Shown: positions 2,677-8,488, numbered from the stretch's first letter. The stretch: 64,000 nt of DNA from Chlamydiae bacterium CG10_big_fil_rev_8_21_14_0_10_42_34 (GCA_002773795.1 PFAD01000008.1:280696-344695); one strand, 5' to 3'. The notes: generated by a model not told the origin, from the sequence alone. Program-made: numbers and translations.

Positions 2677-3426
2677 ATGCCTATCTTCAATAAGATCACA
2701 GTGTGTATCCTTACTAAAAATGCAGAAAGCACAATTGAAGAAACGCTTGATTCGACGCATCTTTTTTCAGAAGTTTTGATTTTGGACAATGGCTCAACGG
2801 ATGCAACTCTTGCGATCGCATCGAAATATCCAAACGTAGTGATCCATAAAGCGCCCTTTATAGGGTTTGGCCCCTTGAGAAACCGTTTAGCAGAGCTTGC
2901 AACCAATGACTGGATACTTGCCCTAGATAGCGATGAAATTGTCTCCCCTCCCCTATCCCAGGAACTAGATCAGCTTACCCTTGATCCTCACTTCACCTAT
3001 AACTTCCCTCGCCATAACTTTTACGATGGAAAACAGGTCCGTGGCTGCGGTTGGGACAAAGAGTATGTGGCTAGGCTCTACAACCGTAATGCAACCCGGT
3101 TTTCAGACGCTTTGGTCCACGAATCGCTTATCACCCTCAAGCCTTTGACCCTTCAATACCCTCTTCTTCATACGCCATACAGATCAACGACCGAATTTTT
3201 AGCAAAGATGCAACACTATTCAACCCTTTTTGCAGAGCAACATCGTGGCAAAAAGAGCTCCTCATTTTCAAAAGCGCTCCTGCATGGGATCTATGCTTTT
3301 ATCAGGAGTTATTTTTTCAAAAAGGGAATTTTCTGTGGAAAAAGGGGCTTTATTATTTCTCTATACAATGCCAATACAACTTTCTATAAATATCTGAAGC
3401 TTTATGAAGTCAATAGAAACGGCTGA
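2677..3426 (+). CDS. family-2 glycosyltransferase (LPS-core type)
   Basis: N-terminal GT-A signature ITVCILTKNAESTIEETL..LDNGSTDAT..LALDSDE (DxD-like). 249 aa. Confidence 0.7.
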   Translation: MPIFNKITVCILTKNAESTIEETLDSTHLFSEVLILDNGSTDATLAIASKYPNVVIHKAPFIGFGPLRNRLAELATNDWILALDSDEIVSPPLSQELDQLTLDPHFTYNFPRHNFYDGKQVRGCGWDKEYVARLYNRNATRFSDALVHESLITLKPLTLQYPLLHTPYRSTTEFLAKMQHYSTLFAEQHRGKKSSSFSKALLHGIYAFIRSYFFKKGIFCGKRGFIISLYNANTTFYKYLKLYEVNRNG

Positions 3427-4712
3427 AGAGAAGAAAACCTTTCTAGAAGATCTTCAGCACTTGGTCGTTTAGTCGGATCAAGCTCAAGCATTGAGCGAAT
3501 GAGTGGTTCAAATTCAGGTCTTGAAGCTAGAAGTGCATCATCCAAATGAGGCTCTTTTAAATTCGCTATCGAAGCCCAAACTTCTTCGTGTGATTTTTTA
3601 TAGGATGCCCATGGAGGAGTCGTTCCGTAAAATAGCTGGTGAAACGTAACGCCCAATGCCCATATATCTGCTTTGATTCTGGTTTCATCCGCATCCAAGC
3701 CGACGAGCTGCTCTGAGCTTAGCAATAGATAATCAGGAGATAGATAATGGGAAGTTCCAACATGTTTCGCCATTAAGTAGTTCTTAGCCCTATGAGGATT
3801 ATAGCTTCCAAAATCGATGAAGTTTGCATCCCCATTTTGATCAATCAGTAGATTCTGCGGCTTTATATCTCCATGAGATCCATTTTTATGGATTCTTGTT
3901 AGCCCAACAAGGAGATCGATGGCAATCTGATTTTTTTTTCTATCACACTCTACTTTATTCTCCTTAATGCAATCCCATAGACTTAAACCTATGGGTTGAA
4001 AAATGGCTAAAGATGGACGACCCGTTTTTTTCCTATAAAATGTCTCATCTAGAACTGGTTGAATCGCTTTTCCTTTTAAACGCTTCATGACATCCACTTC
4101 CATTTTTGTTATGACATAGTCACCGAACTTGTCAGTAATGCGTGCAACCCAAACTTGTTTATTTAAGTCCCAAACTTTTTTTACCTTTTTGTTTCCACCT
4201 TGGCCAATTTTCCCTTTCGGAACACTGATATACACGTTTGCATTTTTCATAATGTGCAACCCTTTAGGGAACGGCGACTCATTTTTATGAATGCGAATAT
4301 CTTTGTCAGAATTTAAGTGGGCCAAAAGGAAACGTGCGCATTTGTGGCTATCAAAGTTTAAATCAGGTCTATTTGTTTTAAGTACCTTGAGTTTAGAAGC
4401 TAATTTTTCCATAGCTTCATGTGGTTGGGTATTTATAGGCTTGTATTGACTTAATTCACTTTGAATTTTTTTGAGAAGAACAAAACGCTTGAAACATTTA
4501 AAAATAGATCTAATGCAAGCAGAAATTCCCCAGGTGGGAAAGTCATACACCTTTATCTCCCAAAGATTTTTTAATTTAAAATGAGAAAGGGCCCGATTAG
4601 CAATTTCCCGAATTGGTGTGTCATTTGACTGAGAATTAAGTTGCACTGCAACCCATTGGCTCATTCCAGGAAACAAATAATCACAAACAACGCTCATATA
4701 ATATCCATTCAT
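3402..4712 (-). CDS. eukaryotic-like (Hanks-type) Ser/Thr protein kinase, paralogue 1
   Basis: Glycine loop GQGGNKKV, catalytic loop HGDIKPQNLL, IDFGS, GTSHYLSPDY. There is a ~165-aa N-terminal extension without a TM segment. The start codon is uncertain. Confidence 0.8.
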   Translation of the reverse strand: MNGYYMSVVCDYLFPGMSQWVAVQLNSQSNDTPIREIANRALSHFKLKNLWEIKVYDFPTWGISACIRSIFKCFKRFVLLKKIQSELSQYKPINTQPHEAMEKLASKLKVLKTNRPDLNFDSHKCARFLLAHLNSDKDIRIHKNESPFPKGLHIMKNANVYISVPKGKIGQGGNKKVKKVWDLNKQVWVARITDKFGDYVITKMEVDVMKRLKGKAIQPVLDETFYRKKTGRPSLAIFQPIGLSLWDCIKENKVECDRKKNQIAIDLLVGLTRIHKNGSHGDIKPQNLLIDQNGDANFIDFGSYNPHRAKNYLMAKHVGTSHYLSPDYLLLSSEQLVGLDADETRIKADIWALGVTFHQLFYGTTPPWASYKKSHEEVWASIANLKEPHLDDALLASRPEFEPLIRSMLELDPTKRPSAEDLLERFSSLQPFLLTS

Positions 4713-5033
4713 TATTAAATAAATATTTTAACAAACAGGCCATTAAAAAACAATATAATACGTTATATTACCCCCCCCTTAATTATCCCGTTATTAGACC
4801 AGACAGAACATGGTCGCTCAAAAAAACCACAAACCACTAATAATCAGACCATAACGCCAAGCAGATTGCGGCATTAATATATATTAAATTTATATGAGAT
4901 AATGATAGTTAATAAATTTAGCAAAAGAACGTCAAAAAATGTAATAGATTTTACTTTAGAGGGTCGTGTTAAGTTAGTGGGAATGAAACTAAGCCACCAC
5001 CAGCCACGAATGTGAGATCCAAGCTACCAAACC

Positions 5034-6428
5034 CTAGTTCGGGTCCTTCCTCACAATTGGTGGACCATTTTTCTTGAAAACAAATGAAAGCCCTTCTGGA
5101 AATATCGGCGATTTAAACATAATAGGTCGGGAGCTTCTTTGCGCTATCATAGCTATGGTTGCTAATTGTTTGGCGCAACTACATCTTTCCTCATCAGAGC
5201 AAGATTTAAATTCGAGTTTTTCTAAATAACCGGCAAGTGTCTGCTGATTATCTCTATATGTTTGTCTTTCAGGTTCTATTTCTTGCGCAGCATTATTCGC
5301 TGTAATCCTTGAATTTGGGTCGAGACGAAGCATTTCTATAATAATAGGGGCAAGGTATTTAGCGTCTAACAGGTCGTATTCAATCATCCAGTCTGCGTTC
5401 AAATTATTAACAATATCAATCTGCTGTTCTGTTGGTAAATTCGCCCAGAGTGGTTTTTTTTTACTAAAAAGCCTCAAAAGAGTTATCCCCATTGACCAAA
5501 CGTCATGTTTTTTATAGTTATTTTGGTCTGGATGATAATATTCTGGAGGAAAGTAATTACGAGTTCCTACTTGTTTATCTGAAATACTTCCGCGAAATTC
5601 GAACGTCCCAAAATCCCCAAAATAGGGATTCATTTCTTCGTCAACCAAGATATTTTCTAGCTTTATATCTCGATGGATCCCTATCTTTTCTATACGAGCT
5701 AGGTTTTTAATCAGTTTTTTTGCTAGCTCTCTTTTTTGATGCGCATTTAATTCTTCTTCAACGCTTTTCAGATCACCTGTATATAGTTTTTGAAAGATCT
5801 CAAACTTTGGAATCTCAGATTTTTTTTTATCAGAGTATTGAGTCGCCCCAATAAGTCTAACAACTCCTTTAATTCGGTTTAATTGTCTGTGGTTATAAAA
5901 CTCGTTGGCGCAGCTTTTAACACGTGTAGAAGTTAAACGGGCACAGACACTACAATCTTTCAGTCGAATTGCTTTTTTCGCTTTTTTGTAGCCCCCAACT
6001 GCGAACAATGATTTTTTTATATTTAAAAATATTTTTTCGTCTTCCAGCAAGGTGATCGTGGTAGGAAACGGGGAATTAGCAGGACGGATTCTTAAAGAAC
6101 TTTTGTTTTTTGTTAAATAAAGCCTTTTTGCGGCAAGAAATGATGAGCACCTTTCAAGATCAAAATCGGGATAGCCTAGATTCCCCTCTTTAACCTTTTC
6201 TAAACGATCTTTCGAATCGGAATAATACCATTTAAAATTACCCAAATCCAACTCAGATTCTGTAATTCTATCGTCGAACTCAACTAATCTTTTTTCAATT
6301 TTGTCAAAAAATTGATCGGCTAGCTGCTGGATTTTATCAAGTTCAGCAAAAATCGTGTCGTTTATGATTATCCCGTTATTCTCAGCAGTTTTCCTTATAT
6401 AGGGAGATGAATTGATTCCTGATGCCAT
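5034..6428 (-). CDS. eukaryotic-like (Hanks-type) Ser/Thr protein kinase, paralogue 2
   Basis: AVGGYKKA, HRDIKLENIL, GDFGT, GTRNYFPPEY. It shares an N-terminal C..FL.A...SPFP block with paralogue 1. Confidence 0.8.
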   Translation of the reverse strand: MASGINSSPYIRKTAENNGIIINDTIFAELDKIQQLADQFFDKIEKRLVEFDDRITESELDLGNFKWYYSDSKDRLEKVKEGNLGYPDFDLERCSSFLAAKRLYLTKNKSSLRIRPANSPFPTTITLLEDEKIFLNIKKSLFAVGGYKKAKKAIRLKDCSVCARLTSTRVKSCANEFYNHRQLNRIKGVVRLIGATQYSDKKKSEIPKFEIFQKLYTGDLKSVEEELNAHQKRELAKKLIKNLARIEKIGIHRDIKLENILVDEEMNPYFGDFGTFEFRGSISDKQVGTRNYFPPEYYHPDQNNYKKHDVWSMGITLLRLFSKKKPLWANLPTEQQIDIVNNLNADWMIEYDLLDAKYLAPIIIEMLRLDPNSRITANNAAQEIEPERQTYRDNQQTLAGYLEKLEFKSCSDEERCSCAKQLATIAMIAQRSSRPIMFKSPIFPEGLSFVFKKNGPPIVRKDPN

Positions 6429-6639
6429 GCTACTTAATATTAGTTAATCTAATACAGATTAACATAATTCATAATTAAACATAACAAAATTATAAAAAAA
6501 ATTCAATACAGAATGTTGCAAAGTTATCTTTTTAAAGAATGAGAGGCAAGTTTCATGGCAAGTAAACGCTACTTCATTTCCAGTTAGAGCCAGATGCAAA
6601 TCTAATTTTGAAAAATAGGAATTTTTTGAGAACTCCGGG

Positions 6640-6690
6640 GCAGTTGGCTTACTCTCCCGCCATTTTGGGAAAATGACGGTAGCCGGATTC
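6640..6690. repeat. 51-nt direct repeat, distal copy (17 nt of the tRNA 3' end plus 34 nt of its downstream flank)
   Basis: gcagttggcttactctcccgccattttgggaaaatgacggtagccggattc is identical to 6755-6805. Confidence 0.9.
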
Positions 6691-6754
6691 CGGGACTCCC
6701 GCCGATTCGTGGCGGTCAAACGCCACTTCATTTCTCATCACGGACGTAAGCCAA

Positions 6755-6805
6755 GCAGTTGGCTTACTCTCCCGCCATTTTGGGAAAATGACGGTAGCCG
6801 GATTC
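6755..6805. repeat. 51-nt direct repeat, proximal copy overlapping the 3' end of the tRNA at 6789-6862
   Basis: Identical to 6640-6690. The two copies diverge exactly inside the T-loop (gaacc versus cggga). Confidence 0.9.
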
Positions 6806-6862
6806 GAACCAGCGACACGTGGATTATGATTCCACTGCTCTAACCAACTGAGCTATACCGCC
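6789..6862 (-). tRNA. tRNA with CAT anticodon, elongator type (Met, or Ile2 if C34 is lysidinylated)
   Basis: GGCGGTATAGCTCAGTTGGTTAGAGCAGTGGAATCATAATCCACGTGTCGCTGGTTCGAATCCGGCTACCGTCA, folded by hand. The acceptor stem is 7 bp with a G1-C72 pair, D stem GCTC/GAGC, anticodon stem GTGGA/TCCAC, T stem GCTGG/CCGGC. No CCA is encoded. Confidence 0.85.
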
Positions 6863-6922
6863 ACAAGACTTAATTTGAAATTTACACTTCTTGAGGCGAT
6901 GCCTCATCAACTAAAATAATAT

Positions 6923-6995
6923 TAGCGGGGGTAGGACTCGAACCTACGGCCTTTGGGTTATGAGCCCAACGAGCTAACCACTGCTCCACCCCGCG
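6923..6995 (-). tRNA. initiator tRNA-fMet (CAT)
   Basis: CGCGGGGTGGAGCAGTGGTTAGCTCGTTGGGCTCATAACCCAAAGGCCGTAGGTTCGAGTCCTACCCCCGCTA. It has a C1/U72 mismatch and three consecutive G-C pairs closing the anticodon loop (GGG/CCC). The 5' half is close to E. coli tRNA-fMet. Confidence 0.9.
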
Positions 6996-7111
6996 ATAAA
7001 GAAAGTTAAAGCTTAGCATGATAGCCCATTTATTCCCAAAGTTTTTTTCAAACCTTTCGCATTTAGCTCCAAACTGCTATAATTCCATTAAGAAAACGTA
7101 AAGGAAATACC

Positions 7112-7438
7112 ATGTACTACGCAGATATTTTACCTTGGGTTTTGGTAGCTGGCGGAGCCATCAACGCCACCCGCTTAGTTGATCGAGGATTAAATTCTTT
7201 AGATGAACTACCTGGAAAAAATCTTGAAGGCAAAGACACCCAAGAAAAAACAATTCGAGTGGCAGCTAATGTGTTCGAGTTTATAGGACGATTTAGTTTA
7301 GCAATCGGATTAACCGTAGCCGGCCTATGGATGAATATGAAGCTGGCGCCAATTGCTGTGATTGGCAAGACCCTTCCGTGGATAATTGGAGCAGTCACAG
7401 GCCTAGTCTCAAGCGTACTAGTTCGCAAAGCCGTATAA
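7112..7438 (+). CDS. small hydrophobic protein, divergent member 1 of a 4-gene tandem family
   Basis: 108 aa. Three hydrophobic segments and a polar linker with L.GK...EK.I.VAA, as in the neighbouring genes. Confidence 0.55.
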   Translation: MYYADILPWVLVAGGAINATRLVDRGLNSLDELPGKNLEGKDTQEKTIRVAANVFEFIGRFSLAIGLTVAGLWMNMKLAPIAVIGKTLPWIIGAVTGLVSSVLVRKAV

Positions 7439-7503: not shown

Positions 7504-7547
7504 AAGATTATATAAAATTACGACACAACTATAAATTGGAGTCAATT

Positions 7548-7904
7548 ATGTCAGCTTATATCGGTGCAGTACTTTGTCTAAGTGGTGCATTTGCAGCGCA
7601 ACGCACCTACACAAAAGGGGTAGATGCACCTAGAGGTCTCAATTTCGATGGATTGGATTTGCAAGAAAAAATCATGAAGCTTGCAGCATACACGCTCAAA
7701 CTCGTGGGTTCATTTGCCCATTCTATTGGGACTATTCTTGCTGGAGCAACTCTTTGGGGAGCTGCGCCATCAGCTGGATTTGTGGCGCTCTTTCATCAAG
7801 TCGTAACACAATCTGCGGGATGGTATTTCGCTGGATTTGCCTCTTATGCAGCAGGCATTTCTCTTGGCGAGATTGTGCAAGACATACAATTCCAAAGACG
7901 ATAA
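7548..7904 (+). CDS. small hydrophobic protein, family member 2
   Basis: 118 aa from the ATG at 7548, with TGGAG 6 nt upstream. The ORF track used the TTG at 7536. Shares ILAGATLW..FHQ..QSAGW..GFAS with members 3 and 4. Confidence 0.6.
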   Translation: MSAYIGAVLCLSGAFAAQRTYTKGVDAPRGLNFDGLDLQEKIMKLAAYTLKLVGSFAHSIGTILAGATLWGAAPSAGFVALFHQVVTQSAGWYFAGFASYAAGISLGEIVQDIQFQRR

Positions 7905-7944
7905 TAGTTTTAGGACTTGGGCGGTAGAACCTCTACCGCTCTCA
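7905..7944. repeat. 40-nt repeat, copy A, containing an 8-bp/3-nt-loop hairpin (gcggtaga-acc-tctaccgc)
   Basis: tagttttaggacttgggcggtagaacctctaccgctctca is identical to 8846-8885. Confidence 0.9.
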
Positions 7945-8028
7945 CGAAATATAATAAAGCCTCTTCCAGCCTTGTGCTAAATTTTAAGATTACATATTCT
8001 TGCCCCTCACTTTAAATTTGGAAGTTAT

Positions 8029-8415
8029 ATGGCTACTTTAGTTGGAGGGATGTTAGTATGCGGAGGCACCTGGAGTGCGCTTGACGCAGTTGTACAAGCT
8101 CCCAAACATCTCAGTACACTGAGACTAGAAGGAGTGTCATCAGGGCAAAAAACACTTAAGATTGCCGGAACGATGTTTTTTCAGCTCGGTGTATTGTTCA
8201 TGTCCGTAGGAGCTATCGCTGCAGGAGCAACTCTTTGGAAAGCTGAGCCAGCAACCCCACCTTTAACAGTCTTTCATGAAACTATTAGTCAATCACTAGG
8301 TTGGGTTGCTGGTGGGTTTGCGAGTATAATGTCTGGCGTTACCCTTTATAATAGTGGGGGGCCGTTAGCAGCAAATGCTAATGATATACAACGAATTGTA
8401 GATGATATTTGTTAA
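8029..8415 (+). CDS. small hydrophobic protein, family member 3
   Basis: 128 aa, starting MATLVGGMLVCGG. Contains IAAGATLW..FHE.ISQSLGW.AGGFAS. RBS GGAAG. Confidence 0.6.
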   Translation: MATLVGGMLVCGGTWSALDAVVQAPKHLSTLRLEGVSSGQKTLKIAGTMFFQLGVLFMSVGAIAAGATLWKAEPATPPLTVFHETISQSLGWVAGGFASIMSGVTLYNSGGPLAANANDIQRIVDDIC

Positions 8416-8488
8416 AGTAGTTTAATATCTCTTGCATTAAAATTGAAAAATAGAGACCATCATTGGTCACTTTAAATTTGGAGGTTAT

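Follow-up and report, generated by a model that had tools for sequence, protein, structure and literature searches.

Two adjacent genes for eukaryotic-like protein kinases, here called K1 and K2, lie on the minus strand of a 64,000-nucleotide (nt) stretch of the metagenome-assembled genome (MAG) of Chlamydiae bacterium CG10_big_fil_rev_8_21_14_0_10_42_34 (GCA_002773795.1, PFAD01000008.1:280696-344695), hereafter the window. The two genes are arranged head to tail with a 321-nt gap between them, and belong to a kinase family without an earlier description, whose named members and examined gene contexts are all chlamydial. We propose, with a probability of about 0.62, that K1 and K2 are active Ser/Thr-type kinases of this new family in which the ATP-contacting lysine has moved from strand beta3 (K72 of PKA) to strand beta2 (the place of PKA G55), independently of the WNK kinases. 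The features on which the argument turns are as follows, with positions counted from the first nucleotide of the window.

3402..4712, minus strand: K1, an open reading frame (ORF) of 436 amino acids (aa), whose disordered N-terminus is followed by a pre-kinase module of helix and strands and by a eukaryotic protein kinase (ePK) domain
5034..6428, minus strand: K2, a 464-aa paralogue of K1 with the same architecture plus a C-terminal tail of ~80 aa
4215..4358, minus strand: K1 pre-kinase module, residues 119-166 (C..FL.., RI, SPFP, followed by strands that run into beta1), the hallmark of the family
6012..6167, minus strand: K2 pre-kinase module, residues 88-139, placed by alignments and the AlphaFold2 (AF2) model
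4182..4205, minus strand: K1 glycine loop GQGGNKKV, residues 170-177, with K175, the proposed ATP-phosphate lysine, at 4188-4190
5979..6002, minus strand: K2 glycine loop AVGGYKKA, residues 143-150, with K148 at 5985-5987
4137..4145, minus strand: K1 beta3 segment A190-R191-I192, where A190 corresponds to PKA A70, R191 to the x of VAxK and I192 to the column of K72 and WNK1 C250
5934..5942, minus strand: K2 beta3 segment A163-R164-L165, with L165 in the K72 column
4098..4100, minus strand: K1 alphaC glutamate E205, in helix 199-211, nearly invariant in the family
5901-5903, minus strand: K2 alphaC glutamate E176, the equivalent of K1 E205
3852..3875, minus strand: K1 catalytic loop HGDIKPQN, with the family-invariant H280, D282 and N287
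5652..5675, minus strand: K2 catalytic loop HRDIKLEN, with H252, D254 and N259
3807..3815, minus strand: K1 DFG motif, with the family-invariant D300
5607..5615, minus strand: K2 DFG motif, with the family-invariant D272

Both proteins match the Pfam Pkinase model (PF00069; gathering cut-off 31.7 bits), K1 with 96.4 bits (E 2.4e-27) and K2 with 85.3 bits (E 6e-24), and they are 28% identical to each other over 311 aa (E 5e-29), in an alignment that starts ~50 residues before the glycine loop. The ORFs, motifs and residue numbers of the initial annotation all proved correct on rechecking; public annotations start K1 at Met6, giving 431 aa, and an identical copy of K2 stands in NCBI as COT85_02550, a "hypothetical protein" of the same bacterium. 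AF2 modelled K1 with a mean predicted local distance difference test score (pLDDT) of 81.7 (residues 1-63 scoring below 50, and those from about 101 to 430 above 90) and K2 with a mean of 80.5, the first 25-60 residues of the two proteins being modelled as disordered with pLDDT below 50. As first described, neither kinase has a transmembrane (TM) segment (maximum Kyte-Doolittle hydropathy over 19 residues, KD19, 1.14 for K1 and 0.87 for K2) or, by Pfam scan, a sensor domain. The shared non-kinase N-terminal block that had been noticed in both ORFs (C..FL..., SPFP) is real and runs through the whole family. In K1 it is modelled with pLDDT above 90 as a helix (122-132) and three strands (139-141, 152-154 and 160-171), and a Foldseek search against PDB returned only generic kinase folds, with no match to this N-terminal module. 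The C-terminal tail of K2 (5034-5270, residues ~386-464) is modelled as two helices and three short strands with pLDDT 55-74. It resembles the pre-kinase module (ERCSCAKQLA...SSRPIMFKSPIFPEGLSFVFKKNG against ERCSSFLAAK...SSLRIRPANSPFPTTITLL) and may be the remnant of a second such module; that it is a copy of the module was set aside, the match being weak (E 0.095, in a tiny search space).

The family was found by searching 1.84 billion representatives exhaustively with HMMER and a profile of three sequences, which recovered ~40 divergent relatives whose match also extends upstream of the kinase domain; word-indexed homologue searches with K1, K2 and the family alignment returned almost nothing but the queries themselves, P0002 and P0144. 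The family consensus reads LPRxIQxxxDGxVFIHFNK in the pre-kinase module, leading into a glycine loop GxGSFKKVK. Two further paralogues, COT85_01785 and COT85_05340, lie in the same MAG, so that this genome holds at least four members, and several copies per genome are found in the family. Its taxonomy rests on four named MAG proteins and on gene context: the named members come from Chlamydiae, Parachlamydiales or Chlamydiales MAGs, the others being unnamed metagenomic proteins, and the contigs of three other members, which look chlamydial or symbiont-like, carry TLC, DUF5399, dcw-cluster, F-box/LRR, serpin and PP2C genes and, in one case, a tandem kinase pair; the TLC nucleotide transporter and F-box/LRR genes are chlamydial markers. 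The genomic contexts of family members are not conserved, and the family is patchy and multicopy. Family members tend to be paired, either as tandem genes or as fusions of two domains (L087, 6703-9311; L088, 8001-10529; P0156; P0012), and P0035, P0058 and P0054 are fusions with two kinase domains. A scan of genome contigs with the generic pattern [IL]H[RK]DIK[PL][EDA]N detected unrelated bacterial kinases only, and a full-text literature search found no description of a bacterial or chlamydial kinase family with a WNK-type lysine.

In a MAFFT alignment of K1, K2 and one metagenomic relative with PKA, CDK2, PknB, TTK and WNK1 (the last identical in sequence to PDB 5w7t), and likewise in profile alignments, K175 and K148 share a column with WNK1 K233 and PKA G55. 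The aligned glycine loops are GQGGNKKV in K1, AVGGYKKA in K2, GRGSFKTV in WNK1 and GTGSFGRV in PKA, which means that the canonical GxGxxG is departed from in both chlamydial proteins: Lys replaces the third Gly in each, and K2 also has Ala for the first. The beta3 lysine column holds no Lys in either protein. The central claim of the initial annotation, that a beta3 lysine is absent and a lysine stands at the WNK position, holds in both kinases by the MAFFT alignment, the profile alignments and the strand register of the AF2 models.

What had to be corrected is the residue that occupies the old lysine site, which the same annotation had taken to be R191 in K1 and R164 in K2. The distance from the glycine-loop Val (V57 in PKA) to the beta3 Ala (A70) is 13 residues in K1, PKA and WNK1 alike; the family profile "ivAra" aligns to "EFAVK" of PhK-gamma(2), "ECAVK" of CDPK1, "YAMK" of PKA and "VAWC" of WNK1; when 49 unrelated kinase domains are aligned to the family hidden Markov model (HMM), the lysine of 31 falls in the column of K1 I192; and the modelled hairpin comprises beta2 175-182 and beta3 187-194 in K1, and beta2 149-155 and beta3 160-167 in K2, a register in which V177 would pair with I192 and A150 with L165. 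Because spacing, profiles, the lysines of unrelated domains and strand register agree, I192 and L165 are the equivalents of K72. A190 and A163 are the alanine of VAIK, R191 and R164 its outward-facing neighbour (the x of VAxK), and I192 and L165 take the place of the lysine, which in WNK1 is taken by Cys250. The conserved substitution pair originally described, with Arg in place of the beta3 lysine, falls accordingly: the Arg sits one residue earlier, and in the wider family it is often V, S or I. In K1 the R191 of "A-R" and K178, which follows the glycine-loop Val, are both conserved and would sit next to each other across the two strands, on the outside of the beta2/beta3 hairpin, near which the family-specific N-terminal module is predicted to pack.

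The covariation of the two positions, a survey of which the initial annotation had proposed, was followed in PKA-numbered columns across ~38 domains found among the 150 best hits of a single HMMER search. In every one of the 30 domains whose G55 column holds Lys, K72 is replaced by I, L, A, G, S, T or V, and all six with Lys at K72 (P0098, P0066, P0060, P0051, P0135 and P0014) have G, C, A or R at G55, as in "GAFGKV...VAKK" of P0098 and "GSFCKV...VARK" of P0051; in two more, Arg stands at G55 and K72 is lacking. P0060 has a tandem neighbour that combines a canonical glycine loop (NEGTFGEV) with a beta3 Lys. The two lysine positions are thus mutually exclusive across the family domains surveyed. 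A Lys at the K175/K148 column is beyond what chance would give, since none of the 49 non-family kinase domains in the same hit list carries one there, and K175 is the constrained residue of its pair, because the adjacent K176 column is variable (K, R, T, N, E, I, V, A) and K175 far better conserved. The raw Fisher test (p = 1e-5) overstates the support, the sequences being non-independent. A neighbour-joining (NJ) tree groups five of the K72-bearing members in a single clade within the family and sets P0014 apart, inside the K1 subfamily, which suggests that the lysine may have switched position at least twice within the family. Members of the clade with the regained beta3 Lys often have N, S or T at the catalytic-loop Lys (PKA K168).

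The rest of the catalytic apparatus is retained. Across 26 family members, with ~21% mean column identity, G172, H280, D282, N287, D300, P326, W351, G354 and R416 (K1 numbering) are invariant, A190 and E205 are conserved in at least 90% of the sequences, and a separate K2-led alignment of 33 sequences gives the same picture of conservation. The catalytic loop, the DFG Asp and the alphaC Glu, which had been listed as kept, are intact in both kinases on proper alignment. In the arrangement that we propose, K175 and K148 would be directed from beta2 into the nucleotide pocket, sharing a face of the strand with the Val or Ala two residues on that contacts adenine, and would pair with the retained alphaC glutamate (E205 and E176), while the small hydrophobic I192 or L165 would fill the old lysine site. 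On this geometry K175 and K148 are predicted to contact ATP, and K1 and K2 to be active. Decay is argued against because the catalytic residues are invariant, as selection for phosphotransfer would give; the earlier suggestion of selection rather than decay is borne out in this form, with Lys at G55 and no K72 being the hallmark of the whole family.

One alternative is that loss of the beta3 lysine inactivated phosphotransfer and left pseudokinases, acting as scaffolds or nucleotide-binding switches, with the loop lysines forming part of a basic beta2 surface. The missing beta3 Lys itself speaks for it, as do the K2 glycine loop, degraded at its first Gly and at the Val position, and the clearly degenerate relatives P0028, P0040 and P0054, in all probability true pseudokinases, which are without D166, N171 or D184 (PKA numbering). 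Among bacterial pseudokinases, a 2025 review describes families with a beta3 Arg (ActPs2, DYD) and one with arginines on beta2, and families that have basic beta2 residues and no K72, DLHK for example, are currently classed as pseudokinases; the review contains no family with a WNK-position lysine plus intact catalytic residues (PMC12599244). ActPs2, DYD and DLHK resemble K1 and K2 in being bacterial Hanks-type domains without a beta3 Lys, DLHK also having conserved basic residues on beta2, but they come from Actinobacteria, Firmicutes and Proteobacteria and also lose HRD, DFG or Asn residues or the alphaC Glu, whereas the K1/K2 family keeps all of these and has its basic residue at the exact WNK position. 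Near-complete invariance of D166, N171, D184 and the alphaC Glu at ~21% mean identity would be unexpected once catalysis was lost; the G55-column Lys, moreover, is found in 30 domains that lack K72 and is gone wherever K72 is present, and WNK shows that the arrangement is catalytically competent (Kannan et al. 2007, PMC1821047). We regard inactivity of K1 and K2 as unlikely.

If the kinases are active, a different basic residue, either the beta3 Arg (R191 or R164) or K176 or K178, could do the work of the lysine and leave K175 incidental. The invariance of A-R in the K1 subfamily, one pairwise alignment that sets R191 on the TTK lysine and the occurrence of Arg at the beta3 lysine site in ActPs2 and DYD (PMC12599244) are compatible with this. 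Profiles, spacing and AF2 register, however, put the Arg one residue before the lysine column and on the opposite face of the strand; its position is taken by V, S, I or L in the wider family while the G55-column Lys persists; members with "VARK" or "VAKK" have an Arg or Lys at x in addition to Lys at K72; and the K176 column is variable. Such a substitute is highly improbable.

The lysine arrangement itself is that of WNK (WNK1 K233; PDB 5w7t and 6cn9), where a Lys likewise stands at the third Gly of GxGxxG on beta2 and beta3 has none, where alphaC Glu, HRD Asp, Asn and a DFG-type Asp are kept, and where the glycine loop is near-identical (GxGSFK.V; WNK1 GRGSFKTV). WNK is nevertheless not the closest relative of the family by sequence or by fold. 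WNK has DLG and a Cys at the old lysine site where the chlamydial family has DFG and Ile, Leu or Ala, and the family is bacterial, has its own N-terminal module, is without CCT or autoinhibitory domains (and, by Pfam, without WNK C-terminal domains) and switches its lysine between beta2 and beta3. The best matches of the family profile in PDB belong to the CAMK group, with PhK-gamma2 first (169 bits, 1e-48), followed by CDPK1, Rad53, CaMKII, MELK and Chk2; in direct comparison TTK scores 139 bits, CDK2 121, WNK1 111, PKA 98 and PknB 85. No WNK is among the top 60 PDB profile hits, and Foldseek places WNK3 at rank 49. The CAMK-group kinases (phosphorylase kinase gamma, CDPK1, CaMKII, Rad53/Chk2 and MELK; E 1e-48 to 1e-40) share the generic ePK fold but have the canonical GxGxxG and beta3 Lys and no such pre-kinase module, and are only ~20-25% identical. 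As the nearest relatives of the family are CAMK-like kinases, the WNK-like lysine geometry is best read as convergent. That K1 and K2 are WNK homologues taken from a eukaryotic host, with the lysine arrangement inherited, is suggested by the nearly identical loops (GxGSFK.V and GRGSFKTV) and by the fact that Chlamydiae exchange genes with their eukaryotic hosts, but is barely credible given the low rank of WNK1 (below PhK-gamma2, TTK and CDK2, and with no WNK in the top 60), the DFG instead of DLG, the I/L instead of Cys in the K72 column, the lack of WNK C-terminal domains by Pfam and the family-specific N-terminal module.

Wnk has been described as the only functional ePK family without K72, and the CAK-chloro group of choline/aminoglycoside-kinase-like eukaryotic-like kinases (ELKs) as a second known case of a positive charge shifted from position 72 to 55 (Kannan et al. 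2007, PMC1821047). CAK-chloro shares that shift with the K1/K2 family, but consists of ePK-like small-molecule kinases outside Pfam Pkinase, with Arg55, Met72 and loss of the E91 charge, whereas the chlamydial family has Lys55 and keeps E91. Two other assignments were rejected. Membership of the LegK1 family (NCBIfam NF043056) fails at 28.3 bits for K1 and 46.9 for K2, over the C-lobe only, against a cut-off of 550. An anti-phage defence kinase (MADS mad6, PD-T4-6) was likewise discarded, since NCBIfam MAD6 gives 58 and 51 bits, far below its cut-off of 460, the PADLOC matches cover only the generic kinase domain, and no partner genes lie nearby.

Several observations weigh against relocation of the lysine in active enzymes. 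The K2 glycine loop is weakened (AVGGYKKA, with Ala for the first Gly and for the Val), and the proposed lysine geometry is derived from strand register alone. The pairwise HMMER alignment of K1 with TTK, the sole alignment for that register, puts R191 on the TTK lysine, so that a one-residue error at beta3 cannot be fully excluded. The ~38 domains of the covariation survey are strongly non-independent phylogenetically, and five of the six K72-bearing members fall in a single clade. The sixth, P0014, is partly degenerate, with DIG for DFG, a short activation segment and nothing aligned at the alphaC Glu column.

As to function, we consider the chances evenly balanced that K1 and K2 are host-directed effectors, probably type III secreted, instead of regulators of bacterial physiology. 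A host-directed role is plausible because the family is multicopy, fast-diverging and confined to Chlamydiae, which live as obligate intracellular bacteria, and because the proteins have disordered N-termini and no TM segment, with membrane proteins encoded adjacently. It would align them with the effector kinases of other bacteria (Legionella LegK1-4 and LegK7, Salmonella SteC, Yersinia YpkA, Chlamydia Pkn5), which are also eukaryotic-like kinases of intracellular bacteria without TM or sensor domains, lineage-specific and multicopy; those proteins are translocated. Kinase-dead mutants of the LegK proteins target the beta3 lysine. Counting against an effector role, no type III secretion system (T3SS) gene or chaperone was seen next to the K1/K2 locus.

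It is also possible, at somewhat under even odds, that the kinases are not secreted and regulate chlamydial physiology, for example the developmental cycle, in the manner of Pkn1/PknD-type Hanks kinases. The immediate neighbours of K1 and K2 are housekeeping genes (GT2, IMPDH-like, waaA, leuS and tRNAs), and a PP2C phosphatase gene lies near one family member. Less easily reconciled with a physiological role are the patchy, multicopy and fast-diverging character of the family, with tandem paralogues only 28% identical and contexts not conserved; its greater nearness to eukaryotic CAMK-like kinases (PhK-gamma2, 169 bits) than to PknB (85); the lack of TM or sensor domains; and the four putative membrane proteins adjacent to the pair, together with an F-box/LRR gene beside a family member elsewhere.

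The surroundings of the kinase pair include the following genes.

516-1526 and 1542-2603, both minus strand: tandem IMPDH/GMP-reductase paralogues, both of a short form (336 and 353 aa; Pfam IMPDH, E ~1e-87 each)
2677-3426, plus strand: GT2 glycosyltransferase gene, converging on K1 (3402-4712, minus strand), with the 3' ends sharing 25 nt (3402-3426)
6788-6863, minus strand, and 6922-6996: two tRNA-Met genes
7112-7438, 7536-7904, 8029-8415 and 8489-8848, all plus strand: four small tandem paralogues of 108-128 aa, just past the tRNAs

The genes flanking the kinases match the chlamydial phylum (TLC nucleotide transporters, Kdo transferase, leuS), and a promoter and terminator scan over 3300-7100 gave a signal no higher than the shuffled expectation.

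The initial annotation had drawn an argument for secreted effectors partly from visibly AT-rich DNA and an att-like repeat beside a tRNA. The repeat is real: an exact direct repeat of 51 nt (6640-6690 and 6755-6805) comprises the 3' 18 nt of the minus-strand tRNA-Met plus 33 nt downstream. It occurs in two copies within the window, with no third, and encloses 64 nt; both copies lie wholly on the tRNA side of the kinases, which are thus not flanked by it. It has the look of a local duplication or of a scar left by integration or excision. Beside it lies a weaker repeat (6552-6580 and 6706-6734, 79%), and a spurious 90-aa ORF (6459-6731, minus strand) spans the region. The low G+C content (GC) is also real, at 0.380 for K1 and 0.363 for K2 against a mean of 0.428 for window ORFs, and modest: among 43 ORFs K2 ranks third lowest (z = -2.2) and K1 fifth lowest (z = -1.6), three further ORFs lie below K1, and the deviation is small and common to other accessory-looking genes. 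A tRNA-integrated genomic island was rejected, since the kinases are not flanked by the repeat, the eight neighbouring ORFs scanned (the IMPDH-like pair, GT2, the four small membrane proteins and waaA) include no integrase, and the GC deviation is modest.

The four small paralogues, none of which has a Pfam match, are putative membrane proteins. In each, a hydrophobic segment at the N-terminus is followed by a long hydrophobic block in the centre or at the C-terminus, a pattern resembling the bilobed hydrophobic domains of chlamydial Inc proteins. Their G+C content at third codon positions (GC3) is 0.30-0.38, and a repeat of 77 nt, with 90% identity, is common to the 5' ends of the last two (8007-8083 and 8467-8543). 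Behind the second gene and again behind the fourth stands an exact direct repeat of 40 nt, TAGTTTTAGGACTTGGGCGGTAGAACCTCTACCGCTCTCA (7905-7944 and 8846-8885); it includes a GC-rich hairpin, GGCGGTAGA...TCTACCGC, and may be a shared terminator or a duplication boundary.

Automated pipelines label kinases without a beta3 lysine as pseudokinases, and the family described here would warn against calling such proteins dead. An independent bacterial case would make the WNK geometry a recurrent and accessible alternative and not a one-off, and members with the lysine back on beta3 would offer paired natural variants for studying the relocation of a catalytic residue. The fullest version of the proposal, that kinases injected into the host reinvented the WNK active site and that their catalytic lysine hopped between beta2 and beta3 more than once within the family, is rather doubtful. 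If true, it would provide a natural series of "swapped" enzymes showing the migration of an essential catalytic residue, and the emptied beta3 site might permit WNK-like regulation by a small ligand or anion. If translocated into amoebal or other eukaryotic hosts, K1, K2 and their relatives would form a new class within the small set of chlamydial effector kinases.

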